From: an archaeon
GTDB lineage: Archaea > Iainarchaeota > Iainarchaeia > Iainarchaeales > DTGL01
Direction of reading: 5' to 3'
Length of the DNA stretch: 64,000 bases
Assembly (NCBI GenBank): GCA_029258755.1
Contig: JAPDKC010000009.1
Location: forward strand, 46,967 to 110,966
Within the stretch, counting starts at the first letter, position 1, and each line of letters opens with the position of its first letter. Below the pieces are notes generated by a model. It did not search any database. It saw nothing but the letters and a program-made list of their open reading frames with translations, and had not been told where the DNA came from. A program made the translations under genes and the position numbers. Of this stretch, positions 8,257 to 31,800 are shown one piece after another.

Positions 8257-8443
8257 CGAAAGCGGTTTTTCCAGCTTTTTTGAGAGTAAACGAGAAAGTG
8301 CTTTGCTTTGGTGGTTCGGATATACTCAAAGCAACCGAACTCTGCGCGTATGGACCCTTCAGAATCCGAACTCAGGAATTCGGTTTTCGCTACGCCGTTT
8401 TCATCGGTTAGCGCTTTTATTCTCTGCCTGCCGTTGAAGAAAA

Positions 8444-9646: not shown

Positions 9647-9655
9647 GGAATCTCC

Positions 9656-9979: not shown

Positions 9980-10095
9980 AGCAGCACCTCCAAGGTTAAT
10001 TAAGGTGCTGTGCTGAACCGAAAATATATTAAAAAGAAGGGTGAAAAGAGTCTGTGGAAAAGGGCGACTATAAAATAAAAAGAGTGTAAAAAATA

Positions 10096-10923: not shown

Positions 10924-11061
10924 AAAATTTATTGTTTAAAGTAAAGCAGAAAAAAGGACCCTTGGCGTTATTTATATTAAGAGGGCAATCAATAGGATTT
11001 TATTTTTTATTAATAATAGATGTATTATGGCTAGAAAAAAACTTAGGGAAATGCCTAGACG

Positions 11062-11451: not shown

Positions 11452-11746
11452 AGAACCTTTAGATCGTGATGCTCTAATAAAGGCAGTACTAAAATTTTTG
11501 TGTATAGATGATCTGCTGGCCAGCGAAAAGAAAAAGCTTAAAAAGGGAGAATTAGTTGAGTTTCTTAAAGAAGAACCCCAACTAAGAAATCTGCTCAATG
11601 AAGCATTCGAAAAAGGGTGCAAACCGTATTTAAAAAAGGAAATAATAGATAACAAAGAATTGGAACGAATCTACGGAGAGTGTATCTGGAGGATGCACTC
11701 TTACCTTAAACAGCTAGAAGAAGAAAAAGGAAAGATAAAGAAGTAG
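11444..11746 (+). CDS. Hypothetical protein (GTG start)
   Basis: ORF only; overlaps and is probably co-transcribed with 11062..11451. Confidence 0.3.
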   Translation: MYKEPLDRDALIKAVLKFLCIDDLLASEKKKLKKGELVEFLKEEPQLRNLLNEAFEKGCKPYLKKEIIDNKELERIYGECIWRMHSYLKQLEEEKGKIKK

Positions 11747-11750
11747 AATT

Positions 11751-12266
11751 TTAATAATCCTCCGGCTTCATAAATGTACAGCTGCAACCATCAAGCACAA
11801 CCCATATTCTGCCCTTTTCAATCACTCGTAATCTCATATATTCTGTATCTTCTGGATCCGGCTTCTTAAGAAGCTCAATTCCTTTCTTTACAATTTCCTT
11901 GTAATTGTCCTTTACTTCTTCGAATAGGTTCATTGTGAAAACTATTGGCTTTCCATTAGCAAATTCACCTACCTTTACCAGAACACCATCTTCAATCGCC
12001 TGCTCAAGCGGATAGCTGTCAATCACTTCGCCGAAGAATTCTTCTGGAGAAGGAGCGGCCGTTTTCTGGCCACTCCCGTTGTTTCTTATGCGCTTCACTT
12101 CGAACTCAAGGAACTGATTAAGTCTGTTTGTTAATTCCTGCTTTACCTCGAGCATGTCATCGGTTTCTTCAAGCGCAACAGTAGCACCAATGAGTATGCC
12201 TTTGCTTTCATAGTTGCCAAGGTTGATCTTTCTGGAAACGCTTACTGTGAGCTCTTTAAGCTTCAC
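11751..12266 (-). CDS. Hypothetical protein
   Basis: 171-aa ORF with no recognisable motif. Confidence 0.35.
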   Translation of the reverse strand: MKLKELTVSVSRKINLGNYESKGILIGATVALEETDDMLEVKQELTNRLNQFLEFEVKRIRNNGSGQKTAAPSPEEFFGEVIDSYPLEQAIEDGVLVKVGEFANGKPIVFTMNLFEEVKDNYKEIVKKGIELLKKPDPEDTEYMRLRVIEKGRIWVVLDGCSCTFMKPEDY

Positions 12267-12629
12267 CTGCGATCACCTCCTTTGTATTGGTTTCTGCAGC
12301 GCCAGTCAAGCGCTTCAGCCCAGCGAACAGGCTCAGGAAGCAGGTAGTCATAGCTCTGCTTTTCGCTGAGCTTAACCGAATTGAAAAAACTTTTTTGCAA
12401 GCGAGCCACCTCCTAAAAGTTTTTTCTGGAGGCGGTTTGTGGATTTTGGTGGTATTAAATCCTTTCCGAAAGGCGCGGAGCGTGCTTGCTTGCAAGCAAA
12501 AGGTTTAAACCAGCAAAAGCCAGGCCGGAAAGAAAAAACTGGAGGTGGCGAGCGAAAAAGTTGCAGAGAGGTTAAGCGGAAAGCGGCAGAGTACAGATTT
12601 TTCAATGTGGGCGGCCAAAAATAGTAAAA
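12267..12629 (+). ncRNA. Candidate structured ncRNA (possibly SRP/7S RNA); strand tentative
   Basis: This 360-nt intergenic block has much higher GC than its surroundings and only short overlapping ORFs of odd composition. There is long-range complementarity: GCCACCTCC (12405-12413) with GGAGGTGGC (12540-12548), and AGTTTTTT with AAAAAACT. The motif CCAGGCCGGAAAG resembles the SRP RNA helix-8 apex. Confidence 0.35.
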
Positions 12630-13316
12630 TTAACGTCTAGACGGCCATTTTTTCCTGTTTTCGTTAATAAATCTCGCGGGAGAAACTGCAATAATGGGTG
12701 GTTTAATATCCCCAGTACTTTTGCCAAATTTTTCTAATAATTCAGAATCATTAGTGATAAAATACTTACAACCTTGGTAAACTGCTTGGGCAAGCAGATG
12801 AGCATCATTGCATAATAAACCGTGTTCTGAAATAAAAACCCCTGCTATTCCAAATAATTCTTTACTTTCTCTTGCTATTTTTGCATGTTTTTTAAGTTTA
12901 TTAAAGTATTCTTTGTTTTTAAGATAAATATCAAGATAAGTTCCTTTGGGAAATTTTTCTTTTCTTAATCTATAAAACTCTTCAATGGGAATAAAATTTC
13001 TATCCATATATCTTAAAATGTATTTTTCAAAAAGGACACTTAGAACTTCGGTCATGACCAGAGGCGAATAATAAAATTCGAAACCTTTGTTTTCACGGCA
13101 GACAAAGTGTTCAACGAATTCATACGACTGATAAAAAGTTTTTATGTATTTGTTACTATTAGTCCTTTGTTGTTCAATAAAGTCATTCTTTTCTTTTGTT
13201 GTTTGTTTTTGTGCAAGCAACGAATGAAAAATCAGCCAGTTAGCAATTACATTTGAATCAATTAAAGATTTTATCACAATTCTTGCATTTCCTCCAACCT
13301 TTTTTACTGGAGGCAA
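12630..13316 (-). CDS. PIN-domain protein
   Basis: Acidic residues at PIN positions: LIDSNVI ... VMTEV ... ITNDSELL. Confidence 0.4.
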   Translation of the reverse strand: MPPVKKVGGNARIVIKSLIDSNVIANWLIFHSLLAQKQTTKEKNDFIEQQRTNSNKYIKTFYQSYEFVEHFVCRENKGFEFYYSPLVMTEVLSVLFEKYILRYMDRNFIPIEEFYRLRKEKFPKGTYLDIYLKNKEYFNKLKKHAKIARESKELFGIAGVFISEHGLLCNDAHLLAQAVYQGCKYFITNDSELLEKFGKSTGDIKPPIIAVSPARFINENRKKWPSRR

Positions 13317-13962
13317 ATTATTTCCTCCTCCTAATATAGAAAGACACTCTTTTGCCGTCCCTTGTTTTAAAACTAACTTTAATTCTCCTTTTCAGTTTTT
13401 TACTCTTCCTGGTTTTTCTTTTTGTTTTCCCCATTTTACTCTATTTTATAACGACTTTATCTTTATTAATTCTTTTTGTTCCTCGTTGCTGTTAACTTAT
13501 TTGGGATCTCATATCTGTTTGGCTTTTTAATTTAAGAATATGGATGTTTGGTACATGCAAAAGTTCCACATCCCTACTTAGTTAACATTACCTTGTTCCT
13601 CCAAGGCTTAAACGAAATAGAAGTATTTTAAAAGAGAGCTAACAAGAAAATAAGGGGCAAATATGTCCAATTCATCTTTCTTTATTATTTACCGAAATAG
13701 AAGTCTGCAAAATAAACATTAATTTTTCCAACATTGTATTATAAAGCGGGCAAAATTAAAAATAGAATTTTTTAAGGCGAAAAATTCGAAAAAACCCCTA
13801 CTTTAGCTTTAAAGCGAAAAACAAGCTGTTTAGGCGCTTCTTTTACTAGCCATAAAATTTATAAACACTACAAAGCGTATAATTATTATAGTGGGTAAGT
13901 CCAAGCCAGCTCGTGTACCGGATGGTGCACTTTGCCAATAGGCTGGCTTGGGTCCACAATTT

Positions 13963-14589
13963 CTATTTCCATAATATCATGTTTTCTTTGTTCTCAATTT
14001 TCTCTTCAATTATTCTGAAGTAGTGATCATCGCCGGCGTTGAATTTTCTGTTTATGCTCCATGCAACAAAATCCACCACCTGCAGCTCGTTGCTGGCAAA
14101 AGATGGCTTGTGGAATATCTCTATATCCAACTCCTTGCACTTTCTTTTCAGCTTCCTCTTAATATAGCCATTGAAGTCCTCTCTCACAAGAGTGTTTGTA
14201 TGTTTTTTATCTATTGTGATTATCACTTTTCCTTTGTCCAAATTGAGCTCGTTTAGCAGTATGCCACACAGGTAATTGTAAAGCTTGTTCTTCACATCGA
14301 AAAGATAATCTTTAATCTTGTTTTTCTCAACAACTATGGCAAAAATGCGGCAGTCTGTTCTCTTAATTCTTTCTAGCACATATTCTCTTATCCGTTGGTT
14401 AGACTTGTTCGCTTTGATTTCAGGCATTTGCTTTATGGTTTTCTTCAGCTTTATCTGTCTCAGCCTTTTGATTATTCTTGCTAATTTCTTCGGCTCATCA
14501 ACCAAAACAGCAGCAACTGTGAAATACTTTGAGCCGAACTTTCCCAGATCACCGCTCTCATCTATGCAAACATAGTTAAGCCAGCCCAT
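13963..14589 (-). CDS. DUF3800-family protein
   Basis: N-terminal YVCIDESGD motif characteristic of DUF3800. Confidence 0.5.
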   Translation of the reverse strand: MGWLNYVCIDESGDLGKFGSKYFTVAAVLVDEPKKLARIIKRLRQIKLKKTIKQMPEIKANKSNQRIREYVLERIKRTDCRIFAIVVEKNKIKDYLFDVKNKLYNYLCGILLNELNLDKGKVIITIDKKHTNTLVREDFNGYIKRKLKRKCKELDIEIFHKPSFASNELQVVDFVAWSINRKFNAGDDHYFRIIEEKIENKENMILWK

Positions 14590-14720
14590 GGGAAAACCTC
14601 TGGATACGCTTAGCCGTTAAAGAATTCCTGGTACTCTAACTTATTTAAAAGCAATGGTAGAGAATTTCCGCTGACTTTTTTCACCACACGTTTAAATAGC
14701 TGAAAAAGAGGGATTAATTT

Positions 14721-15138
14721 ATGGGGGCTGGTTGTATGCATGCAAAAGAGGACTCTCTATCGGATTCTGAAATAACAGCAAAGCTTCTGGAGTTCATGTT
14801 GAGGAACAGAAAGGAGCTGAAGTTTGTTTTTGAGGAGCTTGAAAAGTACAGAATGTTAAAAGCACGGGGTGGTGGTGTTGGAGTACAAGGATCTGAAGCA
14901 CTTCGAACAGGTGCACGGAAAGCTGTTTGTGTATCTCCTTGAAGAGCTGGATAAATTCATGAGGGGATCTGATGAGGGATCTGAGCCGGAGGAGATTCAA
15001 CTCAAATAATCCGCAGGCAAACTACATAAAAATTCAGGAGAGGATTGACTCTTTGGAGCACAGGTTGAGGGAATTGGACCAGCTTATAATTGAAGGGATG
15101 AGCAGAATAAGCGAGCTGGAGAATAAGTCGAATACGTG
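14721..15138 (+). pseudogene. Coiled-coil hypothetical gene broken into three successive reading frames
   Basis: Frame 1 covers 14721-14942, frame 3 from about 14868 to 15008, and frame 2 from about 14973 to 15138. Each picks up where the previous one stops. The first junction sits at an A4 run. Confidence 0.35.
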
Positions 15139-15193
15139 AAAAAGGTTCGGGTAAACGCCTGTTTTAAATTGCATTGGCACAGTTGGTAATCTT

Positions 15194-16600
15194 TTAAAAC
15201 CCCGGGGGTCTACGATGCTCATAACGTCCTTTGAATAATGTGCTTTTTTGTTTAGTAGATTTCCTTTGCCTCTTGCCTTGAACTTTTTGATAACCTCTCA
15301 CTCTCACGGGTTTTTTAGTCAGATTATTTTCCATTTGATAAAGCTGTTGCCTTGTTTTTATCTTTTTCTTGTATAAGCTTACAAATCTTGGAAGATCTGT
15401 TGCGAGGACAGCGACGGTTTCTTTTATTAAGTTCAAACCTAACATGGAAAAAATTGCAGGGGCTACCCTGTCATCACTGACCTCAGTGCATATTTCACTG
15501 CCGATATCTGGCCGAATTATTTTTAAATTATCTTTAATAATGTCCTCGATAGATTTTATCCAAAACTGCGAAATCCAATCCCCTAACAGGATTTTAAGCA
15601 ACCTAAAAATAAAAATTTTTAAAATTTCTTCATCAATTTTTTCAAGTGTCTCCCTCTTTTCTTCTAAAGACTTCATAAACTTACGTAGTCTATCGTCATG
15701 AATGTTCTCGATTGTTTCCTCCTCAGTTATTCTTCCAGAGAAAGAAAGGGAAGTAGTAATAAGTTGGCTTAAAATTTCAATGTCACTCTTGCTAGGTTCT
15801 TTACCCTCCCTCTCTTTCTGCAAGATACTTGCTGCCTTAAGACCTGCGTAGTAAAAAGCTTTTTTTGAAAGATAGGGGGTAGAATTTGCGCGTAGCTTTT
15901 CAAGCAGGTCTGCTTTAAATTCTTTAGTTGCATAGTTGGGAGCAAGGATTTTTTCAATGAACTTTTTATCCTCAAAGGGCAAGCTTGGGGATACCACGAA
16001 ATCGCCGTTGTTTATATCTTTTGAAAAAACATATACGGCAGATATCTCCGCAAATTTGCCATCTCTGCGCGACAACGTTTTATAGGTCTTGATCCATTTA
16101 GGCTGTAAACTCTCGTCACCGCCATCTTTTACAAAGAAAAATTTTGCCGAATCTCGCCCTTCTTCAAAATACCTCAAACTGAGTGTTATTTTTTCACTTA
16201 CATTTATCTCTAAAAAGACGATATATGGCCCAACTATTCCTTTTTTTGCCCTCCTTAAAGCATCGTACAGGGCATTCCAATCATGTTTCCCAAATTCCCA
16301 ACATAAGGTCTTCAAACCAGACGGTTTCTTATCTATCTTTAGTTCTTCGAGGGAAACGGTTTTAACTTCAACAAAAAATTCAGTGCCATCTAAAATTATC
16401 CTGTAGTCAGGAGTCTTGCTCGTGTGCTCTAAAGAAGGTTCGTATTCAATCTCATCCGCACCTTTATCTATGAAAAAGAACCCAACCTTAACTTCGGGAA
16501 GTGTTTGTCTAGGTCGCCTCTTTAAATTTTCAATCAATTTTTTATTATTTTTTATTGCATAAAGTCGCTCATCATTTAAAAGACTCTCAGTTTCGCTCAT
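15194..16600 (-). CDS. PD-(D/E)xK nuclease-fold protein, 468 aa (hypothetical)
   Basis: Textbook motif PDYRIILDGTEFFVEVKT (PD-x12-E-x-K) in the N-terminal third. A basic tail (KKPVRVRGYQKVQGKRQRK...) follows. Confidence 0.45.
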   Translation of the reverse strand: MSETESLLNDERLYAIKNNKKLIENLKRRPRQTLPEVKVGFFFIDKGADEIEYEPSLEHTSKTPDYRIILDGTEFFVEVKTVSLEELKIDKKPSGLKTLCWEFGKHDWNALYDALRRAKKGIVGPYIVFLEINVSEKITLSLRYFEEGRDSAKFFFVKDGGDESLQPKWIKTYKTLSRRDGKFAEISAVYVFSKDINNGDFVVSPSLPFEDKKFIEKILAPNYATKEFKADLLEKLRANSTPYLSKKAFYYAGLKAASILQKEREGKEPSKSDIEILSQLITTSLSFSGRITEEETIENIHDDRLRKFMKSLEEKRETLEKIDEEILKIFIFRLLKILLGDWISQFWIKSIEDIIKDNLKIIRPDIGSEICTEVSDDRVAPAIFSMLGLNLIKETVAVLATDLPRFVSLYKKKIKTRQQLYQMENNLTKKPVRVRGYQKVQGKRQRKSTKQKSTLFKGRYEHRRPPGF

Positions 16601-16665
16601 AACAATAACGGGCTACCAAAACATTTAATATTTAATTATCTCACACAGAATCCTGCAACAAATCC

Positions 16666-17895
16666 TTAAAGTTCCCTATTTTGCCCATCTAAAAGTAACT
16701 GCTGCTGCATTGAAGCCAAAATCTGCTGAACTCTGTCAGGATTCGCCTTTGAAAGGCTCTTGACCATATCTAACAGCTGAACCAGAACAATTGAGCTTTT
16801 CTCATCCAGATGCTTTATCTCGTCCACTTCGTATTGGGCTGAAGGTTTCAATGGAAGCCAGCACTTCTCGCAGTATTCAAAGGTGACATCGTTTACATGG
16901 CTACAGCGGGGGCACTTCAAAGGCTTCAGAATATCTTCTTTCTTTTCCTCCTTCTTCAGACCGTAGAGTTTCAGGATTGCATCGTCCATCTGCTTGCCGC
17001 TCAAGTGCACATAGCGAGCTGCCATATCCGAATCGCGGACCCATCCAAAGTATTCTTTCATCTGCGCTTCCGTCAAGAACTGCGCCAAGTAGGTTGCTCT
17101 GGAGTGTCTGAAGTTGTGCGGGTTCACAGGTTTTTTCAGGCCTACCCTTCTTGCAATTTTGTGAAGCTGGAGCCTTAGTGCATCATAAGTCATCAAAGAA
17201 ACTTTGTCCACATTTGTGCTGACCCAGAGAGGCGCTTCCGGATCCTCTCTTCTGGGATGGTGGTTTATCCACTCCAGAAGGTAAAGAGCAGCACTAACCA
17301 GGCGGATTCTTCGCATGCCTGTTTTTCCGTTTATTGTGATCTTACAGCCAAATTCATCAAAGGCGACATGCTTTATTTTCATTGTTCCGATTTCGCCAGC
17401 TCTCGCACCGGATTCCCAGAGGACCGCAACAAGCGCTTTGTCCCGTTTGTTCTCGCAGAATTTGAGAAGAAGCTTTACATCCTCTGGTGTGAGCAGCTCC
17501 TCAGGAAGCTTCTTGATTCGGTTTTCCTTGACACGCATCCAAGCAACACATTCTGGGTACTCGTTGTTGCCGTTGAGCCACTTGTGGAACACTTTAAGGA
17601 CCTTGATGTAGGTGTGCACGGTTTCTTGAGATAGCCCCCTTCTCTTGAGCTCTGCTATGAATTTCATGTAATCTTCCTTTGTGGCTTTATCAAAGTCTTT
17701 ACCCAAAGCGATAGCAACAATTTTCAGAATATTTGTTTGTCTTGATATTCTCGCAACACTGAGATCTCTGGCAAAGTTGTAGTCGTGGAATTTGAGAATC
17801 AGCTCTTTGTTGTGCTTCGATATCTTTTTGGATTTTTTAATGGATTCTATTTCCTTATCTAAAAGCTTCTTATAATCGTGGAATTTTTCATACAT
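16666..17895 (-). CDS. Tyrosine-type site-specific integrase/recombinase
   Basis: C-terminal catalytic region contains R (WESGARAGE), HNFRHSRATYL and ARYVH. An N-terminal SAM-like core-binding domain is present. Confidence 0.85.
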   Translation of the reverse strand: MYEKFHDYKKLLDKEIESIKKSKKISKHNKELILKFHDYNFARDLSVARISRQTNILKIVAIALGKDFDKATKEDYMKFIAELKRRGLSQETVHTYIKVLKVFHKWLNGNNEYPECVAWMRVKENRIKKLPEELLTPEDVKLLLKFCENKRDKALVAVLWESGARAGEIGTMKIKHVAFDEFGCKITINGKTGMRRIRLVSAALYLLEWINHHPRREDPEAPLWVSTNVDKVSLMTYDALRLQLHKIARRVGLKKPVNPHNFRHSRATYLAQFLTEAQMKEYFGWVRDSDMAARYVHLSGKQMDDAILKLYGLKKEEKKEDILKPLKCPRCSHVNDVTFEYCEKCWLPLKPSAQYEVDEIKHLDEKSSIVLVQLLDMVKSLSKANPDRVQQILASMQQQLLLDGQNREL

Positions 17896-17955
17896 TTAAC
17901 TACGCCCTCCTGCACCGAAAAATTTAAAAAGGCAAGAGGCGGAGGGCGCCGAACA

Positions 17956-18096
17956 AAAAAGCCAACGCCCAGGCCGGGATTCGAACCCGGATCGCAGCCT
18001 TCCTGCAATTTGCTGAATATTAGCAGCGGGTTGCTGGGGATAATAAGGACCCGCTGGAGGTCCTTATTTCGACAGGGCTGCATCCTAACCCTTAGA
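17956..18096 (-). tRNA. tRNA-Asp(GTC) with a 69-nt intron in the anticodon loop
   Basis: Minus-strand read: acceptor GCCCAGG/CCTGGGC, T-arm CCGGGTTCGAATCCCGG, anticodon stem CAGCC/GGCTG with loop CT-GTC-G...A. The intron forms strong hairpins (AATAAGGACC/GGTCCTTATT). No CCA is encoded. Confidence 0.6.
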
Positions 18097-18156
18097 CTAC
18101 CTGGGCACAGCTTAATAAATTATAAGTTAGGTGCAAGGTTTAAAAAATAATTACTT

Positions 18157-19318: not shown

Positions 19319-21088
19319 TTATTTAAAAGCCTCTATAGCCTTTCTATAGTGCTCAATTATTTTAGCTTGTTCTTCTTTGGAAAGCTTTCTCTCATATTTA
19401 TCATCGCTTAGCTTTTTTCCTGTGCGCTTTTCCCATTCACGGGCAGGAATAGAATATTCGCGCTGTACTGAATCTCTGTAAAGCTCAGGAATAACATTAA
19501 ATGCGCAAAATGGAACTATCTTGCCGTTAGGCATCGCATAATGAATACAGCAGCGCTCAACGCGGTCAACATCATAGTTGTAAGTATCCATGAAGTGCAT
19601 CATACCTATAAAGAGCGAGCGATAATGGAACTCTTTTAAGCCGTCGTAAGAGCCGCTTATAAGCGCCTGCCTAATCATTCTAGCTAAATTGAGCCCTTTA
19701 GGTTGCTTATCTTTGTAGATAAAAGAATCGAGCTTTGCCAAAAGCTTGCCAGCACTTATTATTGTCTTTAGTTTTTTAACTCTGCTGTTTTTTATCTCCA
19801 TAGCAAGTTCCTCTAAGTATTCAAACAAACCCTCAACATCTACAAAGCGTGTTATTGGAACAAAGCGCTTACCATCTAAGAAAATATAAGTAGCAGCACC
19901 GCATGCAAAGTGGGTAGAAAACCTATATTGCGGCCTTCCCTTTATAGCTTCAACAAAATCGCTTATAGCGCTTACGCAAGGAACACAATAGAAATCCTCT
20001 AAAGCAATTTGCCCATCTGTCTGTTCCTCAATACACTTTATAACCTTTGGGATAGTAACTCTTTGCTTTTCCCTTTCCTTTCTTGGCATCATGCCTACCA
20101 AAGAAACTGGCTGGAAGTTCACGCCTCTAACAACGTCAATATTGTAGGCGGCATACCTTATAATATCGCCAAGCTCATGTGTATTGTAGCTGCCTATCAC
20201 TGTTGGCACTAAAACTATGCCTGCTTTGCGCGTTTTTCTTACATTCTCTATGGCTTTTGGGACTTCCCAAAAATTTTTTGGATTCGTTTCCGGTGTAACG
20301 CCATCAAAGCTCATATAGATTACGTTAGCGCCAGCTTCCACAATTCTTTTTACAAGCTCAGGATCCCGGCTAAATCTTATGCCATTCGTGTTAAATTGAA
20401 CGTGCTCAAAGCCTTCTTCGCGGCACATTTTTATAATCTCTACAATATCATCCCTTATTGAAGGTTCCCCTCCTGTAAGCTGAACAGCATTGCATGCTAC
20501 TGGCCTTTCATTTTTAAGCATCCTTAGCATTTCCCTTATTTGCTCCAAACTTGGCTCATATACTGGCTCATCTCTTTTTTGATAGAAGAAGCAGTACCAG
20601 CACGAAAGATCGCAGCGATTGGTTACAACTATGTTTGCCAACGCTGTGTGGCTCTTGTGCTGCTTGCACAAGCCGCAATCATTTGGACAAACAATTTCGT
20701 TTAGCTCTTTTTCCACCTGCGGATTTTCAAGTTCTATACCTGGAGAAGCAAACTTCATCTGCTTGAAGTAATAATTCGCATCTTCCCAGTAGTGATCAAC
20801 CCATAAACCATGCCTCGGGCATTCTTTGCGCAAAGAGATCTTTCCGTCCTTTTCAAATACAAGCGCCGGAATAAGCATTGCTTGCCATCTTTTTTCTTCA
20901 GCACAGGCAGGGCATAAACTCATTATAAGCCTTACCGGCCTCTCTCCTTTGCGAATAAGCTTCTTAATTATTTTTTTGCATTCTTCTTCATTAAGCTTTA
21001 CATTAGCGCTTATAGTAACCGTCCAATCTCTAAAAGCCAGGGTTCTGTCTCCGGAATATATCTTCCGCAAAAGCATACTTTTAGGCAT
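19319..21088 (-). CDS. Radical SAM protein with N-terminal Cys-rich (zinc-ribbon-like) region; function unknown
   Basis: CDLSCWYCF is a CxxxCxxC radical SAM cluster motif. Additional upstream Cys pairs are present (CPACAEE; CPNDCGLC). 589 aa. Confidence 0.6.
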   Translation of the reverse strand: MPKSMLLRKIYSGDRTLAFRDWTVTISANVKLNEEECKKIIKKLIRKGERPVRLIMSLCPACAEEKRWQAMLIPALVFEKDGKISLRKECPRHGLWVDHYWEDANYYFKQMKFASPGIELENPQVEKELNEIVCPNDCGLCKQHKSHTALANIVVTNRCDLSCWYCFFYQKRDEPVYEPSLEQIREMLRMLKNERPVACNAVQLTGGEPSIRDDIVEIIKMCREEGFEHVQFNTNGIRFSRDPELVKRIVEAGANVIYMSFDGVTPETNPKNFWEVPKAIENVRKTRKAGIVLVPTVIGSYNTHELGDIIRYAAYNIDVVRGVNFQPVSLVGMMPRKEREKQRVTIPKVIKCIEEQTDGQIALEDFYCVPCVSAISDFVEAIKGRPQYRFSTHFACGAATYIFLDGKRFVPITRFVDVEGLFEYLEELAMEIKNSRVKKLKTIISAGKLLAKLDSFIYKDKQPKGLNLARMIRQALISGSYDGLKEFHYRSLFIGMMHFMDTYNYDVDRVERCCIHYAMPNGKIVPFCAFNVIPELYRDSVQREYSIPAREWEKRTGKKLSDDKYERKLSKEEQAKIIEHYRKAIEAFK

Positions 21089-25004: not shown

Positions 25005-25775
25005 TTACCTATAAAAACGCATTAAAACCCTGGATTCAAAGAATGTTTTTTCCAACTCTCGTAGAAAACTAAAAGATTCGCTCTCCTTCCCGATTTGGTT
25101 AAGATATTTGTAAAACAGATTTTTGATTTCACTTAGGGTTCTTGGAGCCCTTTTCTCAAGCCATTTCAAAGAAACCCTCCTGTTTTTCAAATCTTTTTCA
25201 ATGAGCTTTTTTTCTTCAGGATATTTTGTTAGAAAAGAAACAAAAAAGTTCAAATTCCGGCCATAATCCAGGTGAAGGTCTCGAATATCATCTGCTATTT
25301 GGGCAGCTAATGCCCAATTACGTAGTGCTTTGCCTGCAAGTTCTGCATCTTTTTCTGAAAGACCATTCAAAAGAGCTATAATATTACCAAAATCTTCAAA
25401 TGCCCTTCCCGTGGTATTTTCCTTCCATGCAATAACTTTTTCTGGAGCTGCAAAATAACCAAGCTTCATTTCCTCTAAATACTCTTTAAATACCGCCCTT
25501 CTCATCTCAGCAAAAATTTTTATAATTCGCTTCTTTGTTTTTTTGTCCAAAGGCATTCTAACAACGAAGGAGGTAAATCTTTCTGCCGCTTGTTTTGCTT
25601 TTTCATTCTCTTTTAGTTGTCTAAGCTTCTCAAGTTTCTTTTCCCTCACAAGCTTCTCAGCTTCATCGTCAAATGCTCGCATCCATGTATAGATAAGGCT
25701 TAGCGCTTTTACAGATTCTTTACGTTTGAATTTGCCCCCCTTCTCGCGTACAAAGTTTTCAAGTATATCAAGCAT
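25005..25775 (-). CDS. Squalene/phytoene synthase family (head-to-head isoprenoid synthase) protein
   Basis: First Asp-rich motif YTWMRAFDDEAE and second motif AAQIADDIRDLHLDYGRN match the SQS/PSY family. Confidence 0.55.
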   Translation of the reverse strand: MLDILENFVREKGGKFKRKESVKALSLIYTWMRAFDDEAEKLVREKKLEKLRQLKENEKAKQAAERFTSFVVRMPLDKKTKKRIIKIFAEMRRAVFKEYLEEMKLGYFAAPEKVIAWKENTTGRAFEDFGNIIALLNGLSEKDAELAGKALRNWALAAQIADDIRDLHLDYGRNLNFFVSFLTKYPEEKKLIEKDLKNRRVSLKWLEKRAPRTLSEIKNLFYKYLNQIGKESESFSFLRELEKTFFESRVLMRFYR

Positions 25776-26048: not shown

Positions 26049-26705
26049 GTGATGTCCAGCGTAAAAAGGACTGTCACGTTTCTTTTTTTGTTACTGATTA
26101 TGATGCCTGTTGCTTTTGCAGACCTGATTGGCCCCAACTATTTAATTGATTTTCCCCTGATCACATTCTTTTTTCTCTTTGTAAATTTTGCATGGAACCT
26201 ATTAGTGGTCTTTTCTATCCAGAGAATTTTCCTAAAGGACTTTCTTTCTAAAATGCATTTCTCTGAAATTTTAAACCTTCTTGCAATGATTACCTTCTTC
26301 GGGCTTGTGGGAGACGCCATCTGTGTGCTTGGTGGCTTGAATTTGGAACCAGCATTTTTCTCTTACCTTTTCTGTGCTTTACCTATTGTTATCCTTGAAT
26401 TCAATTATCTGGCAAGAAAAACAACTATAAAAAACGCAGGAATTCTAGCTCTGTCGCTCGGTTTGCTAGCCAATCCCATACTCGGAATAACTGTTTTGGA
26501 ATCCTTGAGTGTGCAGTTTCAGGTGAATATAGCAATGGTTTTGTTTGGCCTACTCATAGTCATTCTAGCAGCAGCAGTTCTTTACCATCTGTGGAAAAAA
26601 GAAAAGCAACCTGAAAAAAGCAAACAGGCCCTTTTGTGGCTTACAATTGCTTTGATTGTGTTTGTGCTCTCAGCAATCTTTTTATTGTTTACCAGCGCGG
26701 GATAA
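26049..26705 (+). CDS. Integral membrane protein, hypothetical
   Basis: 218 aa with about 6 TM helices. Confidence 0.45.
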   Translation: MMSSVKRTVTFLFLLLIMMPVAFADLIGPNYLIDFPLITFFFLFVNFAWNLLVVFSIQRIFLKDFLSKMHFSEILNLLAMITFFGLVGDAICVLGGLNLEPAFFSYLFCALPIVILEFNYLARKTTIKNAGILALSLGLLANPILGITVLESLSVQFQVNIAMVLFGLLIVILAAAVLYHLWKKEKQPEKSKQALLWLTIALIVFVLSAIFLLFTSAG

Positions 26706-27440
26706 GACAAGGGCTAAGGAGCCATAAAATTATCATAGCTGGAATCGACCACTAACTATCATAAAATCAGAAATACTATCCATAACAACATCACCACTAT
26801 ACGGCACTCCAATACTGGCATATATTGCGAATTGGTTGATAACAACAACATCAACTAAAAAGAAAGGGGTAGAGAAGGAAAGGGTTCATCATCATAGATA
26901 GAAGGGGGTTTGATAGAGTAGCCGGGAGCAATGAAAGAATAACGGCTCGTTTCCGAGGGAATTTAAATTTGTATTTTAAGAGAAGATGTTCAAATACAAA
27001 AGTTAGAACAATATTAAAATGACTGAACCAAGAGAAAATAGAATAACAGTCATGAAAAGGGTTGAAATTATGGCCACAACAGGCAGAGAAGCCATTCCTA
27101 TGAATAAATCCATCACTTTTTCTGCTGGAAATTTTTTCAGAAAATTGTGCGGCTTTGCATCAAAATCGCAGCTACTCATAGCTACCTAAATAAGGATTAA
27201 ATATTCGCATAGTTTTAGGGTGGTGAGGTTAGAAAAATAGAACCGAAAATCTGTGCAAAGTTATTTGTAAAGCCTTTGACGCATAAAACTTGCTGGAAGA
27301 AGGCAGGAGGTTCTTGCAAGGATTGTTCTGCACAATTTCATGCAGCTTGTTGTTGCGCATTATGAAAGCAGAGTGAAACTGGAAATTTTGTTAGGAAAAA
27401 TAATTATGACACAAAGCCACACCCATTGCTTTCACGCCAC

Positions 27441-28328
27441 CTATCCAGAAACCTTGCTTAGGATAAATTCCATCATCTTTTTTGGCACGATATTGCCTAA
27501 GAATTTTCTGAAAGGTCCCGGCTGAAAGTTTGCCTCAATAACCGCAAAGCCCTGCTTTGTTAGGTTCGTTTCTATGAAATCTATCGCGCATATATCAAAC
27601 CCTAAAACGCGAGCAGCTTTCACAGCACACTTTTCCATCTTCTCGTTTCCTTCGATTATCTCTGCTTTGCCACCCCTGCTTATGTTTGCACGCCAATCAC
27701 CTGGCTTGCCAGTTCTTCTTACGCTAAGCACCTCATCTCCAAAAACATAGCACCTTATATCGGTATTCCTTCCAGGAACAAAGCGCTGTGCAGCAATATA
27801 ATCCTCGAAAAGATGCACAGTATCGAGAATGGAAAGAAGCTGTTTTTTGTCCCTTACAAGCATCACTCCTTTTCCAGCAAATCCGCTTATAAGCTTTAAC
27901 ACAACCGGGAAGCCGAAAGCTTTTACAATGCTTTCTGTTGCTTGAGGGGATGCGCTAAGCGATGTAAGCAAGCAAGGGATCTTATTTTCAGCGAGCCTTT
28001 TTATGGTATAATACTTATGGTTTGAGATTTGGTAGCCTCTAAGAGAAACTGGTGTATAAATTTTTGCGCTATCCAAAATTCTAAGCACGGCTTCTCCCAT
28101 AAAGAAATCGCTCGAACCAAATCTTGGATAGCAAGCATCAAAATCAAGTATGTTTGTATCTTTGTAGAGTATTTTCGATGAACCGCTTTCATGTACTATG
28201 CGGAGCTTATTTATCGGAACAAAAAGCACTTTATCAAAGAGCTTCTCCGCTTCTTTGAGAAGCAATCTATTGTTTGCCTTATGGTATCGCGTAGCTGCAA
28301 TTATAGCAATACTTGCCATCTCAAGCAC
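27441..28328 (-). CDS. RimK-like ATP-grasp ligase
   Basis: ATP-grasp fold motifs (FPVVLK, GKGV, DIRCYVFGDEV, DFIETN...GFAVIEAN). Confidence 0.7.
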   Translation of the reverse strand: MLEMASIAIIAATRYHKANNRLLLKEAEKLFDKVLFVPINKLRIVHESGSSKILYKDTNILDFDACYPRFGSSDFFMGEAVLRILDSAKIYTPVSLRGYQISNHKYYTIKRLAENKIPCLLTSLSASPQATESIVKAFGFPVVLKLISGFAGKGVMLVRDKKQLLSILDTVHLFEDYIAAQRFVPGRNTDIRCYVFGDEVLSVRRTGKPGDWRANISRGGKAEIIEGNEKMEKCAVKAARVLGFDICAIDFIETNLTKQGFAVIEANFQPGPFRKFLGNIVPKKMMEFILSKVSG

Positions 28329-29160
28329 CAGAGATTTTTTCCTTAAATAGTTCGGCTACCTCCTCAAAAAGGTTCTGCCCAGTTCTTTTCGTGAATGTAA
28401 GCATGTTCACATAGGGCTTTACTTTAAGCACAAATCCTTTGCACATCTTTACCATGGCAATATCGCAGCCGCATACGCTTGCAGCTTGTATAGCTAACTC
28501 TTCCTCCGCTTTAGACAATTTTGCTGGCAAAGCTTTTTTCAATGGCTGCAAGCTGCCGTCTTCTTTGACCAACCTTCTCAAGTTATAAACCTTTTCCCCT
28601 ATAACAGCGCAGTGGTCTACTTCGCCAACTATATAATCCCTTATAAGCGCATTATCAGCTTGTATTCCTTCTGACAGGGAAAGCAATGTTTTTTCATCCT
28701 TTGCTATGAAGCTATGGATCTTTTTCCCTTTAACGTAAAACTTAACAAGCACGGGATAGCTAAACTTTTCAGCAGCTGCTTTAATCTGCTCGGGGCTTCC
28801 TACTATCATTGTTCGCGGTACTTTTATATTGTATTCATTCAATACGCTTATCTGAAGAAGTTCGTTGCTTCCGATATAAAAAGAGCCCTTTTTCAGCTGA
28901 CAGTATATACCGCGCCTTTCGATTTCATCTAACAGGGGCTCAACGAACTGCGTTAGCTCCAGCGGTGTTTCCAGATAGACGGCTTTTGTTTTGGTAAGAG
29001 CCAAGCCCGAATTTTTAATTCTTGAGCCAGACATATCGCTGAAAAGTGTTAGCTCCCTCACATGAATCGTTTTAACATCAAAGCCCCTTTCCTTGAAGGC
29101 ATCCTTCAGCAAACCAAAGCGTTTCTTCTCGCCTTCAACAGCCATTATTAATTTTTCCAT
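28321..29160 (-). CDS. RimK-like ATP-grasp ligase (second copy)
   Basis: Start taken at MEKLIMAVEG (29160) rather than the ORF-track start, to avoid overlapping the convergent protease gene. Motifs YPVLVKF and ATP-grasp C-terminal region. 8-nt overlap with the downstream RimK-like gene. Confidence 0.65.
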   Translation of the reverse strand: MEKLIMAVEGEKKRFGLLKDAFKERGFDVKTIHVRELTLFSDMSGSRIKNSGLALTKTKAVYLETPLELTQFVEPLLDEIERRGIYCQLKKGSFYIGSNELLQISVLNEYNIKVPRTMIVGSPEQIKAAAEKFSYPVLVKFYVKGKKIHSFIAKDEKTLLSLSEGIQADNALIRDYIVGEVDHCAVIGEKVYNLRRLVKEDGSLQPLKKALPAKLSKAEEELAIQAASVCGCDIAMVKMCKGFVLKVKPYVNMLTFTKRTGQNLFEEVAELFKEKISGA

Positions 29161-29209
29161 CCAAACCCCCGATAGGATAATAACATAAGACCTCTTCTTT
29201 AAAAATTTT

Positions 29210-29689
29210 TTGATTTTTCCAACTTTTGTTATGTCGCAAAAAAGGGCCTTACTCAAGGCCCTGCAAGAAAAAAAGATAGTTGGCTTGGTAGAGCCCGTAA
29301 AAATAATCGGAAAGAAACGTACTGTTGAAACCTTGGCTTTATTAGATACTGGAGCAACACGCTCAAGTGTTGATCTGAAAATAGCTGCAAAAGCCGGCTT
29401 AGGCCCCATAACAAGGGTTGCTAGGGTGAAAAGCAAAACAGAGCCAAAGGGCTACACCAGAAGAGCTGTTGTTTTGGGAGAGATAGAGATAGCAGGCATA
29501 AGAAAGAAGGTTCATTTTACGCTTGCTGATCGCTTAGGCATGCGGTATGCGGTGCTTGTTGGCAGGGATGTTTTGCATGATGGCTTTGTTGTGGATATAG
29601 GAAAAACGCACAATGGATTCAAACTTGATGATATAAAGAAGGATGTTTTGCAAAATGTTGAAGATAAAAATAAGAAAAGTAAAAAATGA
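29210..29689 (+). CDS. Retropepsin-like aspartic protease (RimK-associated 'ATP-dependent zinc protease' family, PF05618-like)
   Basis: LALLDTGATRSSVD contains the DTGA aspartyl protease motif. The size and the RimK neighbourhood match the family. Confidence 0.6.
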   Translation: MIFPTFVMSQKRALLKALQEKKIVGLVEPVKIIGKKRTVETLALLDTGATRSSVDLKIAAKAGLGPITRVARVKSKTEPKGYTRRAVVLGEIEIAGIRKKVHFTLADRLGMRYAVLVGRDVLHDGFVVDIGKTHNGFKLDDIKKDVLQNVEDKNKKSKK

Positions 29690-30113
29690 GGATGCAAGCG
29701 CTTTAGCCGCATTATTTCCTCACTGGGACGCAGAGATAACAAAAAAAAGAGTTGAAAGAGCCCCAAAAAGCAAGCGCGAAGCAAGGTACGTTGCAGAGAT
29801 AGAAGACAAAGTTGTAGCGCACCTGCTTGTAAGATTTGGTGCAGGATGGCAGAGCCACATAGCAACTTTTTACTCTTTAGTAGTCCATCCTGATTACAGG
29901 CGCAAGGGCATAGCCACAGAACTTATAAAATACGCAATTAAAAACATGCCCAAGCACATAGAGATCGTTAATGCCCAGGTTCAGCACGATAATAAGGCAT
30001 CTTTAGCCCTTTTTTCCAAGCTCGGCTTTGAGGTTTATGGAAGATTAAAGGACGGTTGGAAGAAAGAAGGCGTATACAAAGACCTAATCCTTCTGATGAA
30101 AAGGATAAGATAG
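29643..30113 (+). CDS. GNAT-family N-acetyltransferase
   Basis: Acetyl-CoA binding motif RRKGIATELI. The likely start is MLKIKIRK at 29655. Confidence 0.7.
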   Translation: MFCKMLKIKIRKVKNEDASALAALFPHWDAEITKKRVERAPKSKREARYVAEIEDKVVAHLLVRFGAGWQSHIATFYSLVVHPDYRRKGIATELIKYAIKNMPKHIEIVNAQVQHDNKASLALFSKLGFEVYGRLKDGWKKEGVYKDLILLMKRIR

Positions 30114-30560
30114 CTAAATTTCTTCTATACCAAGATCTATGGCTAAGCGCTTCTTTATCAAGGAGCTTTTAAACCTTTTAGGCATATATGCTCTTAAGCG
30201 AACCACCTTCGCCTTTACAGAATGCTCCTTAAGAAATCGCTCCAATGTTTTTTTGCTGATATTGTGATCATAGCCCAAAGCGACAATATCGGGCTTATAC
30301 TTAAGAATCACTGCAAGTTTATCCTTCTTCGAGCCAAGAATTGCTTTGTCCACAAATTTTAAGGAGTTTATTATCGCTACTCTTTGCCTTTCATCTTTTA
30401 ATGGCAAGCTCCCCTTTTCCTTCAAAACATTTTCATCCCTTGCAACCACAACCAGAAGCTTATTGCCAAGCGCCTTTGCTTTTTTAAGATAATAGATATG
30501 CCCCAAATGCAATATGTCAAAGCAACCAAAAGCCATCACAAGTTTTTCTCTTTTCATCAC
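30114..30560 (-). CDS. Cytidylyltransferase-like nucleotidyltransferase (possibly FAD synthase RibL)
   Basis: MAFGCFDILHLGHIYYL is the (H/T)xGH motif of the nucleotidylyl transferase superfamily. The 148-aa size is typical of archaeal RibL. Confidence 0.5.
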   Translation of the reverse strand: MMKREKLVMAFGCFDILHLGHIYYLKKAKALGNKLLVVVARDENVLKEKGSLPLKDERQRVAIINSLKFVDKAILGSKKDKLAVILKYKPDIVALGYDHNISKKTLERFLKEHSVKAKVVRLRAYMPKRFKSSLIKKRLAIDLGIEEI

Positions 30561-30622: not shown

Positions 30623-31339
30623 ATGCAGATTAATCCATTATTCATATTTGCACACCCGGTGAAAACGCTTCAGGATGCTATAGAAAAACCGGATTTTAAC
30701 AAAGCCTTCTTTATAGTCATGATTCCCACAATCCTTTTTGTATCCTTCAATCTGTTAGCAGGGCTCAAGCTTGATATGTTCACTGTAGCCAGGCATGCTG
30801 GCCTACATTACCTAAGCTGGATTATCGCAAGCTCGGTGTTTTATTTCTTTGCATTTCTTGTTGCTGGAAAAACCATTAAAGGGAAGTTCCTTTCTATAAT
30901 GTGTGCTCTTTCATATCTTTGGATTTTTTTGGCTATAATGATGCTTGTTTCCTTCCTGCTTTTAATGGGTTCGCCCAAATTTATCGAGATTCAGCAAATA
31001 GTTAGGAAAAAGTCGCTTACCGCAGATGAAGTAGAAACCTTGTACAACATCCTCACCAGAAATGACTCAGAGGCCCTAGAAAACTTTGAGAAGGTGCACG
31101 ATATAAGAACGGATCTGAGCAAATATATGCTTACGAAAGAAGAAGTAGCTACCATAAATAATATAAGTGCCTTTGGTTTTATTTCTGGCACAATCCTTCT
31201 ATTTTATATGCTCTTCCTTTATCCATTTATAACCCTTAAACTTTTGGTGAAAAAAGGGTCTGCAGCGGTATTTATTTTATATATCATTGCTGGCACAGTA
31301 ACGCTTTATACTATTTCGGCTCCTTTTAAGCTCTTCTAA
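30623..31339 (+). CDS. Yip1-like multi-TM membrane protein, hypothetical
   Basis: 238 aa with about 5 TM helices. Confidence 0.4.
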   Translation: MQINPLFIFAHPVKTLQDAIEKPDFNKAFFIVMIPTILFVSFNLLAGLKLDMFTVARHAGLHYLSWIIASSVFYFFAFLVAGKTIKGKFLSIMCALSYLWIFLAIMMLVSFLLLMGSPKFIEIQQIVRKKSLTADEVETLYNILTRNDSEALENFEKVHDIRTDLSKYMLTKEEVATINNISAFGFISGTILLFYMLFLYPFITLKLLVKKGSAAVFILYIIAGTVTLYTISAPFKLF

Positions 31340-31800
31340 GGTTTTCTTCGGATTATGGCCAAAATTCCGAAAGCAACTAAGATAATAAAGCTCGGAGGAA
31401 GCTCATCTATATTAACTCCGCTAATATCCCTTGGAACAACAAAGAAGCGTATTAGTCTGCAAGTACCGCTTGGATCGCAGCTTGAAGAAATTTCGGCCAA
31501 AACAGCATATTTTCCAGGAGAAAGGGGCTGCGAAAGAGAGAAACTTTGAATAGTGTTGCAGTGCACATTTATGAGAGAAGAGCCTATCTGGGTCTTTGGC
31601 TCAGTTTCCCAGTCATAGAGAGTTAGATTCACTGTTCCAGAGCTTGGGTTGCCAGAGGCATCATAGCATTCAACATACACTCTAGGCATGCCATTTAGAA
31701 GAGAGATATTCATATCCGTTATGGAATATTGAGCATGCACAGCATACAAAAGCACCAAACAAGCTAGAAGGAATGTTGCAGAGCGAAGCATAAAAACCAT
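31336..31800 (-). CDS. Secreted protein with C-terminal TM anchor plus basic tail (PGF-CTERM-like sorting signal?)
   Basis: Signal peptide MVFMLRSATFLLACLVLLYAVHA. The C-terminus is LPPSFIILVAFGILAIIRRKP. Confidence 0.45.
   Translation of the reverse strand: MVFMLRSATFLLACLVLLYAVHAQYSITDMNISLLNGMPRVYVECYDASGNPSSGTVNLTLYDWETEPKTQIGSSLINVHCNTIQSFSLSQPLSPGKYAVLAEISSSCDPSGTCRLIRFFVVPRDISGVNIDELPPSFIILVAFGILAIIRRKP

Follow-up and report, generated by a model that had tools for sequence, protein, structure and literature searches.

Four adjacent genes of a small archaeon belonging to the Iainarchaeota (DPANN) seem, on balance, to form a lineage-wide Iainarchaeota module that adds an acidic tail, most likely alpha-glutamyl, to a protein or peptide in an ATP-dependent manner and trims it by proteolysis. 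The genes lie in a 64-kb stretch of DNA, all of which was analysed and which is called the window here. The initial annotation of this DNA had rightly taken the host for an archaeon. The following features were distinguished:

27441..28319, minus strand: gene A, a RimK-family ATP-grasp ligase, catalytically complete by its residues; 292 amino acids from the ATG, with an alternative GTG start at 28328
28321..29160, minus strand: gene B, a degenerate ATP-grasp paralogue of 279 amino acids, the predicted non-catalytic partner of A
29161..29230, intergenic: the shared divergent promoter region, with start codons read directly in the sequence
29231..29689, plus strand: the protease, a RimB/PF05618-type retropepsin-like aspartic peptidase of 152 amino acids, no signal peptide
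29643..30113, plus strand: the GNAT acetyltransferase (PF00583), 156 amino acids, with an alternative ATG at 29655
30623..31339, plus strand: 'c2mem', a conserved multi-pass membrane protein that belongs to no Pfam family; a possible accessory of uncertain membership

The B-A pair (minus strand, from 29160 to 27441) and the protease-GNAT pair (plus strand, from 29231 to 30113) are divergent, head-to-head, and have a 70-bp intergenic region in common. The two pairs had been described as convergent, which does not agree with the start codons read from the sequence, as the ATG of B is at 29160 and that of the protease at 29231. A mechanical listing gave B as an ORF of 371 amino acids (28321..29436). 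This was rejected as an over-extension into the protease gene, the homologues and gene calls being about 272-279 amino acids long. The ligase genes had been described as overlapping. From the ATG of A, however, they abut (the stop codon of B occupies 28323-28321 and the ATG of A 28319-28317), and an overlap of 8 nt exists only if A starts at the GTG at 28328. As called, gene A begins at the ATG, and a protein of 292 amino acids exists that is 100% identical to it. On the other strand, the GNAT gene begins 35-47 nt before the protease gene ends. Inside the B/protease intergenic region, at 29198-29217, lies an AT-rich near-palindrome, TTTAAAAATTTTTTGATTTT. In six loci with diverging flanking bases this motif was constant except for one T/G position, and it is probably a TATA-type element. 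The ORF-free stretch of 736 bp at 26706-27440 was also considered as a decayed purA, which was ruled out on checking.

The catalytic set of an ATP-grasp enzyme consists of the ATP lysine, the glycine-rich loop, D-x-R, R-x-N-x-x-R-G-G and the D/E/N Mg ligands. At each of the 17 positions for ATP, Mg and catalysis A has the residue of E. coli RimK, and the orthologues of A keep the 17 positions in 49/49 cases. The initial annotation had recognized A and B as two adjacent RimK-family ATP-grasp ORFs on the minus strand, and this was borne out by PF08443 (104.7 bits for A and 42.2 bits for B, cut-off 21). A also matched Rimk_N (36 bits) and exceeded the curated cut-off of the RimK family model TIGR00768 (149.5 against 143.4 bits). 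Among solved structures the RimK proteins of E. coli and Pseudomonas came closest to A (E about 3e-30), and the matches to solved ArgX/LysX were weaker (E 3e-17 to 1e-11). With the equivalog models A scored 112.9 bits for RimK (NF007764, cut-off 331), 104.2 bits for LysX/ArgX (TIGR02144, cut-off 275.6), 101.9 bits for MptN (NF040720, cut-off 350) and 50.4 bits for CofF (TIGR04443, cut-off 300). None of the proteins of the module reaches the cut-off of a characterized equivalog, i.e. RimK, LysX, MptN, CofF or RimB. Judged by its residues, A is the catalytic RimK-type ligase of the module, and the amino acid that it adds is presumably glutamate.

B passes the Pfam domain model only. It failed TIGR00768 (50.3 bits, cut-off 143.4), and its equivalog scores were 23.3 (NF007764), 27.6 (TIGR02144), 18.5 (NF040720) and 16.3 bits (TIGR04443). 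The glycine-rich loop and the R-x-N-x-x-R-G-G motif are absent, and in the window all three Mg ligands (D247, E262 and N264) are replaced by lysines. Across 49 loci G151 is changed to Q in 42, and R189, R210, N212 and N264 are gone in essentially all. The ATP-binding lysine is retained in 47/49 loci and R202 in 45/49, and the Mg ligands D and E are kept in 28/49 and 18/49, often outside the clade of the window. For these counts A and B were told apart by gene position and catalytic columns; iterated HMMs merged into one ATP-grasp profile. The AlphaFold model of B (pLDDT 89.9) gave RimK as the best Foldseek matches (TM 0.85, 20% identity). Because B has lost the loop, the motif and the Mg ligands, A and B are predicted to be an enzyme and a pseudoenzyme, the latter keeping the RimK fold with a destroyed active site that is degenerate in all 49 genomes examined. 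The two-step ligation by two ligases that had been proposed earlier is therefore unlikely. B is located 5' of A in 48/53 loci, the remaining five being cut by contig ends. An overlap of 4 nt between the stop of B and the start of A is the commonest junction (19/32 loci), and most others fall within about 8 nt. This indicates that B and A are translationally coupled. In this respect the pair resembles the enzyme-pseudoenzyme pairs of ATP-grasp and other ligase families, where the active enzyme is expressed together with a paralogue that keeps the fold but not the catalytic residues. No described example from the RimK family was found in the searched literature, which is absence of evidence only.

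The plus-strand genes were identified in agreement with the initial annotation, which had named a DTGA protease of the PF05618 type and an acetyltransferase. The protease scored 36.3 bits with PF05618 (cut-off 27) and 28.2 bits with Asp_protease_2. Its best NCBIfam match, RloA3 (39.2 bits, cut-off 210), and the RimB equivalog NF052261 (25.3 bits, cut-off 200) were both below cut-off, and among solved chains 9g58, of the PF05618 type, came nearest. The catalytic motif reads LLDTGATRS in the window, and the orthologues have D[TS]GA in 53/53 cases. The N-terminus, MSQKRALLKALQEKK, was read directly and has no hydrophobic signal sequence, as expected of a cytoplasmic protein. The GNAT scored 61.8 bits with PF00583 (cut-off 20.7) and contains the acetyl-CoA motif RRKGIA (pattern R/Q-x-x-G-x-G/A). 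Its RimI-like matches are weak (RimI equivalog 41.7 bits, cut-off 86.4), and its nearest solved relatives are the protein N-terminal acetyltransferases 6wqb and SSO0209/Ard1.

The arrangement recurs in 53 species-level Iainarchaeota genomes, with identities of 44-88% for A, and because of this recurrence it is not a matter of chance. The core of protease and B-A was present in 46/46 Iainarchaeota genomes with enough flank, and wherever at least 600 bp of flank was available (46/46 loci) the protease gene pointed away from B-A. The GNAT gene was found 3' of the protease in 35/45 loci. The core is conserved although both of its flanks vary, PurA, MATCAP or other genes being present downstream and a RibL insertion upstream. 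Inherited synteny could account for some of the shared gene order. Of 43 loci with enough flank, 42 have the c2mem gene beside the module, and in 28 of the 42 it is directly 5' of a gene for a LysW-like protein with an acidic tail, which is missing in the window.

This LysW-like zinc-ribbon protein, a MATCAP/TMCP-type carboxypeptidase and an M29 aminopeptidase are added to the arrays of most relatives. The LysW-like gene lies within the array in 28/43 related loci with enough flank, and in one locus (L016) it adjoins MATCAP after a rearrangement. The tail of the protein comprises about 25 residues, mostly Asp/Glu, and ends in [DE][DE][YF]-x(0-5). Its C-termini are variable (...EDYDSD, ...YEYDED, ...DEYFDD), mostly ...DYDSD. 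The last residue is D in 16/20, E in 3/20 and S in 1/20 sequences, and an aromatic residue is found within the final seven in 18/20. The C-terminal EDWGE with a terminal Glu, known as invariant in the LysW family, is missing from the LysW-like proteins of the relatives. The model of the LysW/ArgW carrier, NF041070, was the best NCBIfam match for all four sequences tested (E 3e-7 to 7e-4), at 19-30 bits against a cut-off of 75. With PF21344 17-19 bits were obtained (cut-off 27), and the next-nearest sequences in a set of 5.8 billion proteins were PF21344 LysW proteins. When the profile was compared with solved structures, CSL/Dph3 zinc fingers matched better than LysW; the best match of the fold model was LysW. 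The MATCAP homologue scored 153.2 bits with PF08014 (cut-off 27), HExxxH was present in 39/39 homologues, and the representative also shows an EEG motif. Besides, six loci contain a third ATP-grasp gene, and only there was a faint match to TTL seen.

No candidate substrate was found among the genes of the 64-kb window. A search for a LysW-like gene (HMM to E 100, zinc-ribbon regex and acidic-tail scan) gave no credible match in it, the ORF-free stretch at 26706-27440 contained no small LysW-like ORF, and an acidic C-terminus was found in none of the window ORFs of at least 50 amino acids. A MATCAP homologue was also absent from the window, and throughout its sub-lineage no LysW-like, MATCAP or M29 genes occur near the module. 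This implies that the core works without them nearby, or on something else.

The LysW-like, MATCAP-type and M29 genes in the same arrays of the relatives point to an acidic tail that is built up and cut back on a protein. To our knowledge, archaea do not have the ribosomal protein bS6, which is specific to bacteria. As the host is an archaeon, bS6 is not to be expected as the substrate. In the mechanism that we propose A would catalyse the ligation of the tail in the RimK manner, and B would be made in step with it by translational coupling. Together they may form a RimK-like hetero-oligomer in which B is a scaffold or a substrate-docking subunit; RimK is a tetramer, and that of E. coli holds two subunit conformations (PMC10092738). 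The three lysines at the former Mg site of B in this lineage would suit the binding of an acidic tail. The RimB-like retropepsin would shorten the tail and might also stimulate the ligase. In bacteria, RimB acts on polyglutamylated RpsF, from which it strips Glu, and on internal poly-Glu, which it cleaves; it also stimulates RimK (PMC11957791). The co-transcribed GNAT is similar to N-terminal acetyltransferases and may modify the substrate too, or else one of the enzymes. The small LysW-like protein with its acidic tail is the leading candidate substrate in the relatives.

A more far-reaching version, which is put forward tentatively and is less probable than the module function itself, is an 'acidic-tail code' on the LysW-like zinc-ribbon protein. 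A and the pseudoenzyme B, in some genomes with the third ligase, would lengthen the tail; the retropepsin-like endopeptidase, the MATCAP-type carboxypeptidase and the M29 aminopeptidase would shorten it, and the GNAT would add an acetyl mark. In the lineage of the window the four core genes would remain, and the gene for the substrate would lie elsewhere.

Like the Pseudomonas RimK-RimB system (RimABK), in which bS6 (RpsF) is polyglutamylated and trimmed, the module genetically couples a RimK-family ligase, with every RimK catalytic residue and RimK as its closest solved relative, to a cytoplasmic PF05618 retropepsin-like peptidase with D-T-G-A. It differs in that its host is an archaeon, expected to have no bS6, that A and the protease are far below the equivalog cut-offs, and that a RimA phosphodiesterase is absent. 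Ligase and protease are moreover transcribed divergently instead of from a single operon, and the module has in addition a GNAT and a second, degenerate ATP-grasp subunit that is obligatory. The study of RimB makes no mention of archaea (PMC11957791). A likeness to the editing of eukaryotic tubulin tails (TTL/TTLL versus MATCAP/TMCP and CCP) is seen in the relatives, which encode an ATP-grasp ligase and a PF08014 MATCAP-type HExxxH carboxypeptidase side by side, and beside them a protein whose Glu/Asp-rich tail has an aromatic residue near its end. The MATCAP family trims acidic tails and removes polyglutamylation (PMC10499314). The ligase of the module, however, is of the RimK and not of the TTL type, there is no tubulin, the window has no MATCAP gene, and the functional link in the relatives is deduced from gene order only. 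Literature searched on RimK or LysW in Diapherotrites/Iainarchaeum, and on MATCAP with ATP-grasp or archaea, contained no paper describing the module.

The product might also be a free polymer. In that case A, with the help of B, would synthesize poly- or oligo-alpha-glutamate that serves as osmolyte or as a reserve of carbon/nitrogen. N-acetylation by the GNAT may cap the chains, and their degradation would fall to the protease and, in the relatives, also to the MATCAP-type and M29 peptidases. On a small scale this would resemble the formation and breakdown of cyanophycin, or the synthesis of N-acetyl-Asp-Glu or NAGGN. E. coli RimK makes poly-alpha-glutamate in vitro and is stimulated by RimB (PMC11957791; also PDB titles), the window encodes no substrate protein, and the endo-, carboxy- and aminopeptidase of the relatives together would degrade a polymer fully. 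GNAT and ATP-grasp are, besides, the domain pair of N-acetylglutaminylglutamine synthetase, to which A and the GNAT have weak matches. However, this leaves unexplained both a conserved, translationally coupled, inactive ligase subunit and the acidic-tailed zinc-ribbon protein in the arrays of most relatives, and the closest solved relatives of the GNAT act on protein N-termini. We regard a free polymer as rather unlikely.

Less likely still is a LysW-type carrier, on whose C-terminal carboxylate the LysX/ArgX-like A would load an amino acid for on-carrier chemistry, a peptidase releasing the product. As in the LysX/ArgX-LysW systems of Thermus, Sulfolobus and Thermococcus, a RimK-family ligase is accompanied by a small zinc-ribbon protein with an acidic C-terminal tail, in the related genomes only; the LysW/ArgW model is the best NCBIfam match of this protein, PF21344 LysW proteins are its next-nearest sequences, and with the LysX model A reaches 104 bits. 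Compared with that of LysW, however, the tail is much longer and has variable ends instead of EDWGE, every LysW and LysX cut-off was missed, and A is closer to RimK than to ArgX/LysX. LysZ/Y/J/K types (amino-acid kinase, semialdehyde dehydrogenase, class-III aminotransferase, M20 hydrolase) were found neither in the scanned window ORFs nor among the conserved neighbours, and the partners are peptidases. The LysW-like carrier suggested in the initial annotation is supported in part, by the LysW-like gene in the arrays of 28/43 relatives, with neither a copy in the window nor the accompanying pathway. The finding that this annotation had named as fatal to its own proposal, ligases of the LysX/ArgX clade with the alpha-aminoadipate (AAA) pathway nearby, was not made: TIGR02144 gave 104.2 bits against 275.6, and pathway genes were absent.

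The tails of F420 or methanopterin, likewise suggested at the outset, can hardly be the product. Addition of glutamate to a pterin, F420 or furan-type coenzyme by A, with or without B, in the manner of MptN, CofF or the methylofuran ligases, could be argued from the MptN score of A, about equal to those for RimK or LysX, and from an SHMT gene 3 kb from the module. The MptN and CofF scores are nevertheless far under the cut-offs, the genes that invariably accompany the ligase encode peptidases and a GNAT of the protein type, and the conserved neighbours include no cofactor-pathway genes. A radical-SAM gene at 19319-21088 with an 'HMPTM' zinc ribbon was considered as a hint of methanopterin synthesis (MptN-like) and rejected, since NCBIfam identifies it as the tetraether lipid synthase Tes and not as a pterin methylase. 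Equally improbable is catalysis of two successive, different ligations by A and B, for which the tandem RimK-family genes and the residues retained by B might be cited, but which is contradicted by the loss of the loop and of R189, R210, N212 and N264 from B in essentially all 49 loci and of its three Mg ligands in the window.

If the module serves to add and trim an acidic tail on a protein or peptide, its significance lies in the contrast with RimK and RimB, which are understood only as a means of tuning the bacterial ribosome via protein S6. RimK/RimB chemistry would here be kept in archaea without S6, together with a built-in pseudoenzyme subunit and an acetyltransferase, and therefore protein-tail glutamylation in prokaryotes may have other targets. 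The LysW-like acidic-tailed protein and the MATCAP-type deglutamylase beside the module in sister genomes provide a concrete candidate substrate. As the proteins of the module are small and soluble, these questions can be answered with recombinant proteins. The module may link three systems that have been treated separately, namely RimK, the LysX/LysW carriers and the enzymes of the eukaryotic tubulin tail. If the 'acidic-tail code' is true, it would parallel in prokaryotes the editing of tubulin tails and stand as a living intermediate between the polyglutamylation of proteins of the RimK type and the carrier chemistry of LysX/LysW.

The evidence leans towards a RimK/RimB-like system that would add an acidic tail to a protein or peptide and trim it, with a non-catalytic ligase paralogue, B, as its built-in partner and a target that would not be bS6, the bacterial ribosomal protein S6 on which RimK acts. 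The four genes in 27441-30113 are real:

27441..28319, minus strand, RimK-family ATP-grasp ligase A, 292 aa
28321..29160, minus strand, RimK-family ATP-grasp paralogue B, 279 aa, upstream of A
29231..29689, plus strand, aspartic peptidase (protease), 152 aa, start ATG at 29231
29643..30113, plus strand, GNAT acetyltransferase, 156 aa

The 3' end of the protease gene is overlapped by the GNAT gene over 35-47 nt. B starts at the ATG at 29160, the protein beginning MEKLIMAVEG; a 371-aa ORF reaching 29436 was rejected as B, being over-extended relative to homologues and gene calls of about 272-279 aa. With these starts of B and the protease, the two gene pairs stand head-to-head across a 70-bp spacer (29161-29230), and not convergently as described in the initial annotation. 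The spacer contains an invariant AT-rich near-palindrome, TTTAAAAA[T/G]TTTTTGATTTT (29198-29217), which was kept in six loci despite divergent neighbouring bases and from which we infer a shared TATA-type element.

A pattern scan with one genome per species yielded 53 Iainarchaeota loci, across which the identities of A were 44-88%; conservation counts were restricted to loci with enough flanking DNA. B and A were both present in 48 of the 53, the remainder being cut by contig ends, and the protease was divergent from B in 46/46. The GNAT was found in 35/45 loci and an unannotated membrane protein (30623..31339 in the window) in 42/43. The flanks vary by clade, with PurA, MATCAP (a PF08014 carboxypeptidase) or other genes downstream and a RibL-like gene inserted upstream. 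Because they differ between clades, inherited synteny alone does not account for the cohesion of the core of protease, B and A. The RibL-like cytidylyl/adenylyltransferase gene (30114-30560, minus strand) separates the GNAT gene from that of the conserved membrane protein. This placement is confined to the window's clade and its sisters, and the gene seems to have entered the ancestral array by insertion and not to belong to the module.

The close relatives of A all came from 'Candidatus Diapherotrites / Iainarchaeum / Forterrea' MAGs, which belong to the DPANN archaea, and other genes of the window (TFB, aEF1-alpha and the tetraether lipid synthase Tes) fit an archaeal host. The Tes gene (19319-21088, minus strand; 714 bits, cut-off 450) is notable for a small-genome DPANN archaeon; a pterin enzyme, indicated here by a Pfam 'HMPTM zinc ribbon' match, was rejected for tetraether (GDGT) lipid synthase.

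The protease scored above the PF05618 cut-off (36.3 bits against 27) and under the RimB equivalog cut-off (25.3 against 200). Its motif is LLDTGATRS in the window, and D[TS]GA was present in 53/53 orthologues. It has no signal peptide, in which it resembles cytoplasmic RimB and differs from the secreted RloA enzymes (PMC12239564). RimB, in a study confined to bacteria, strips glutamates from polyglutamylated RpsF (the Pseudomonas name of bS6), cleaves internal poly-Glu and boosts poly-alpha-glutamate synthesis by RimK (PMC11957791). Metabolism of free poly- or oligo-glutamate, with which this boost would be compatible, is rather unlikely; the closest solved relatives of the GNAT, which carries the acetyl-CoA motif RRKGIA, are protein N-terminal acetyltransferases (6wqb, Sulfolobus SSO0209/Ard1).

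In most genomes the array runs, in this order, through CysRS, W, the membrane protein, GNAT and protease and then, beyond the head-to-head spacer, through B, A, MATCAP, where present a further MATCAP or third ATP-grasp, and the aminopeptidase M29. MATCAP was found in 27/43 and M29 in 15/36 loci with enough flank. W is a zinc-ribbon protein of 65-80 aa with four invariant Cys, 9-16 Asp/Glu among its final 25 residues and usually an aromatic residue in the last 7 (...EEDYDSD, ...YEYDED, ...DEYFDD). In NCBIfam its top match was in every case the LysW/ArgW carrier model, with 19-30 bits and under the cut-off of 75; beyond the roughly 95 clusters of its own family, PF21344 LysW proteins came next. 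A solved-structure profile search preferred CSL/Dph3 zinc fingers (E 3e-5) to LysW (E about 2), and the LysW-type EDWGE end was absent from the W sequences. The LysW-like carrier suggested in the initial annotation had a possible counterpart in the array of relatives (28/43 loci with enough flank), but the 64-kb window contained no W-like ORF. A LysW-type carrier pathway is improbable; a check for lysine or arginine biosynthesis genes, as had been proposed, revealed none of the carrier-pathway type among the window ORFs scanned. For the acidic-tail system, the LysW-like, acidic-tailed W is the leading candidate substrate in the relatives.

Peptidases of the MATCAP family take C-terminal Tyr and Glu off acidic tubulin tails and remove polyglutamylation (PMC10499314). 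The homologues in relatives (PF08014, 153 bits; HExxxH in 39/39) lie directly downstream of A in most Iainarchaeota, often duplicated and then followed by M29. In the rearranged locus L016, MATCAP is directly downstream of W, which is an independent adjacency. In six loci a third ATP-grasp separates MATCAP from M29; it kept most catalytic residues and gave a faint match to the tubulin-tyrosine-ligase family (PF03133, E 1.3e-3).

L024:7894-9015, plus strand, MATCAP/TMCP-type carboxypeptidase (PF08014, HExxxH), also in 34 other related loci
L016:1-888, minus strand, MATCAP/TMCP-type carboxypeptidase, adjoining W, the small acidic protein
L042:9269-10255, plus strand, third ATP-grasp paralogue
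L041:9172-10311 and L021:8032-9048, third ATP-grasp paralogue, also in L045, L054 and L035

In the sub-lineage of the window (with L005-L014 and L057), the core is accompanied by the membrane protein; within reach of the module no W, MATCAP or M29 was found, and the expected W slot, from the membrane protein to CysRS, is occupied by four other genes. The whole 64-kb window was likewise devoid of MATCAP, M29 and any ORF with an acidic C-terminus. Downstream of A, 736 bp (26706-27440) are without an ORF of 60 aa or more and without a detectable purA remnant, although sister genomes have purA there; a hydrophobic 58-aa ORF is located at 27003..27179 (minus strand), and L005 and L006 have nothing corresponding to 26049-27441. 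Three ORFs around the module matched no Pfam or NCBIfam family:

25005-25775, minus strand, 256-aa soluble protein, shared with L006
26049-26705, plus strand, 218-aa multi-pass membrane protein
31336-31800, minus strand, 154-aa protein, N-terminus signal-like, hydrophobic anchor at the C-terminus

Further away, 5689-18106 is a probable integrated mobile element. Right next to its tyrosine integrase (16666-17895) is a 141-nt tRNA match (17966-18106, minus strand), which was called by Rfam and not by ARAGORN and may therefore contain an intron. Genes of the PrgI/TrmB-like, HEPN and DUF3800 types lie upstream, along with several ORFs without a family; the GC content is about 0.38 elsewhere but rises to 0.44-0.45 at 6-10 kb.

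With 149.5 bits, ligase A exceeded the cut-off of 143.4 for the RimK-family subfamily model, and its closest solved structures are E. coli and Pseudomonas RimK (E about 3e-30), followed by ArgX (3e-17) and LysX (1e-11 to 5e-13). It is identical to E. coli RimK at 17 ATP/Mg-binding and catalytic positions (ATP lysine, glycine loop, D-x-R, R202, R-x-N-x-x-R-G-G, and the D/E/N Mg ligands), all retained in 49/49 orthologues. Judged by its sequence, A is a complete RimK-type enzyme. It fell far under all equivalog cut-offs: RimK 112.9/331, LysX 104.2/275.6, MptN 101.9/350 and CofF 50.4/300. Glutamylation of a cofactor, which the initial annotation had raised as F420/methanopterin tails and which MptN and CofF carry out, is very improbable.

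B, named 'hypothetical protein' in public records, scored 42 bits with PF08443 and 50 bits with TIGR00768. In an alignment with A and RimK it has neither the glycine-rich loop nor the R-x-N-x-x-R-G-G motif, and none of the three Mg ligands, whose positions are K/K/K in the window (VKMC...LKVKP). Among 49 loci, G151 was replaced by Q in 42, and R189, R210, N212 and N264 were essentially never retained; position 247 was D in 28 and K in 19, position 262 E in 18 and K in 15. The AlphaFold model was confident (pLDDT 89.9, pTM 0.87), with RimK crystal structures as best structural matches (TM 0.85, 20% identity). The B profile, run against 1.84 billion representatives, reached E of 1e-30 or better with only 36 clusters; weaker matches grade into general ATP-grasp proteins. 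B is a predicted pseudoenzyme that has kept the RimK fold, and the two-step ligation by two ligases that had been proposed is therefore unlikely; that both ligases are active is hardly credible.

In the window 1 nt separates the B stop codon (28323-28321) from the A ATG (28319-28317); the two overlap by 4 nt in 19/32 evaluable loci and lie within about 8 nt in most others. Translationally coupled subunits typically show such stop/start overlap. RimK is a tetramer, which in E. coli has two subunit conformations (PMC10092738), so that an A/B hetero-oligomer would be a natural inference.

The component families are known and the module is not categorically new. It was without description in the literature searched, a search that left the survey of Iyer et al. 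(2009) outside. Relative to that literature, what is new is that the module occurs in archaea, where bS6 is lacking, that it has an obligatory pseudo-ligase subunit, that it is coupled to a GNAT and that, in relatives, it is paired with both a LysW-like protein and a MATCAP-type peptidase.
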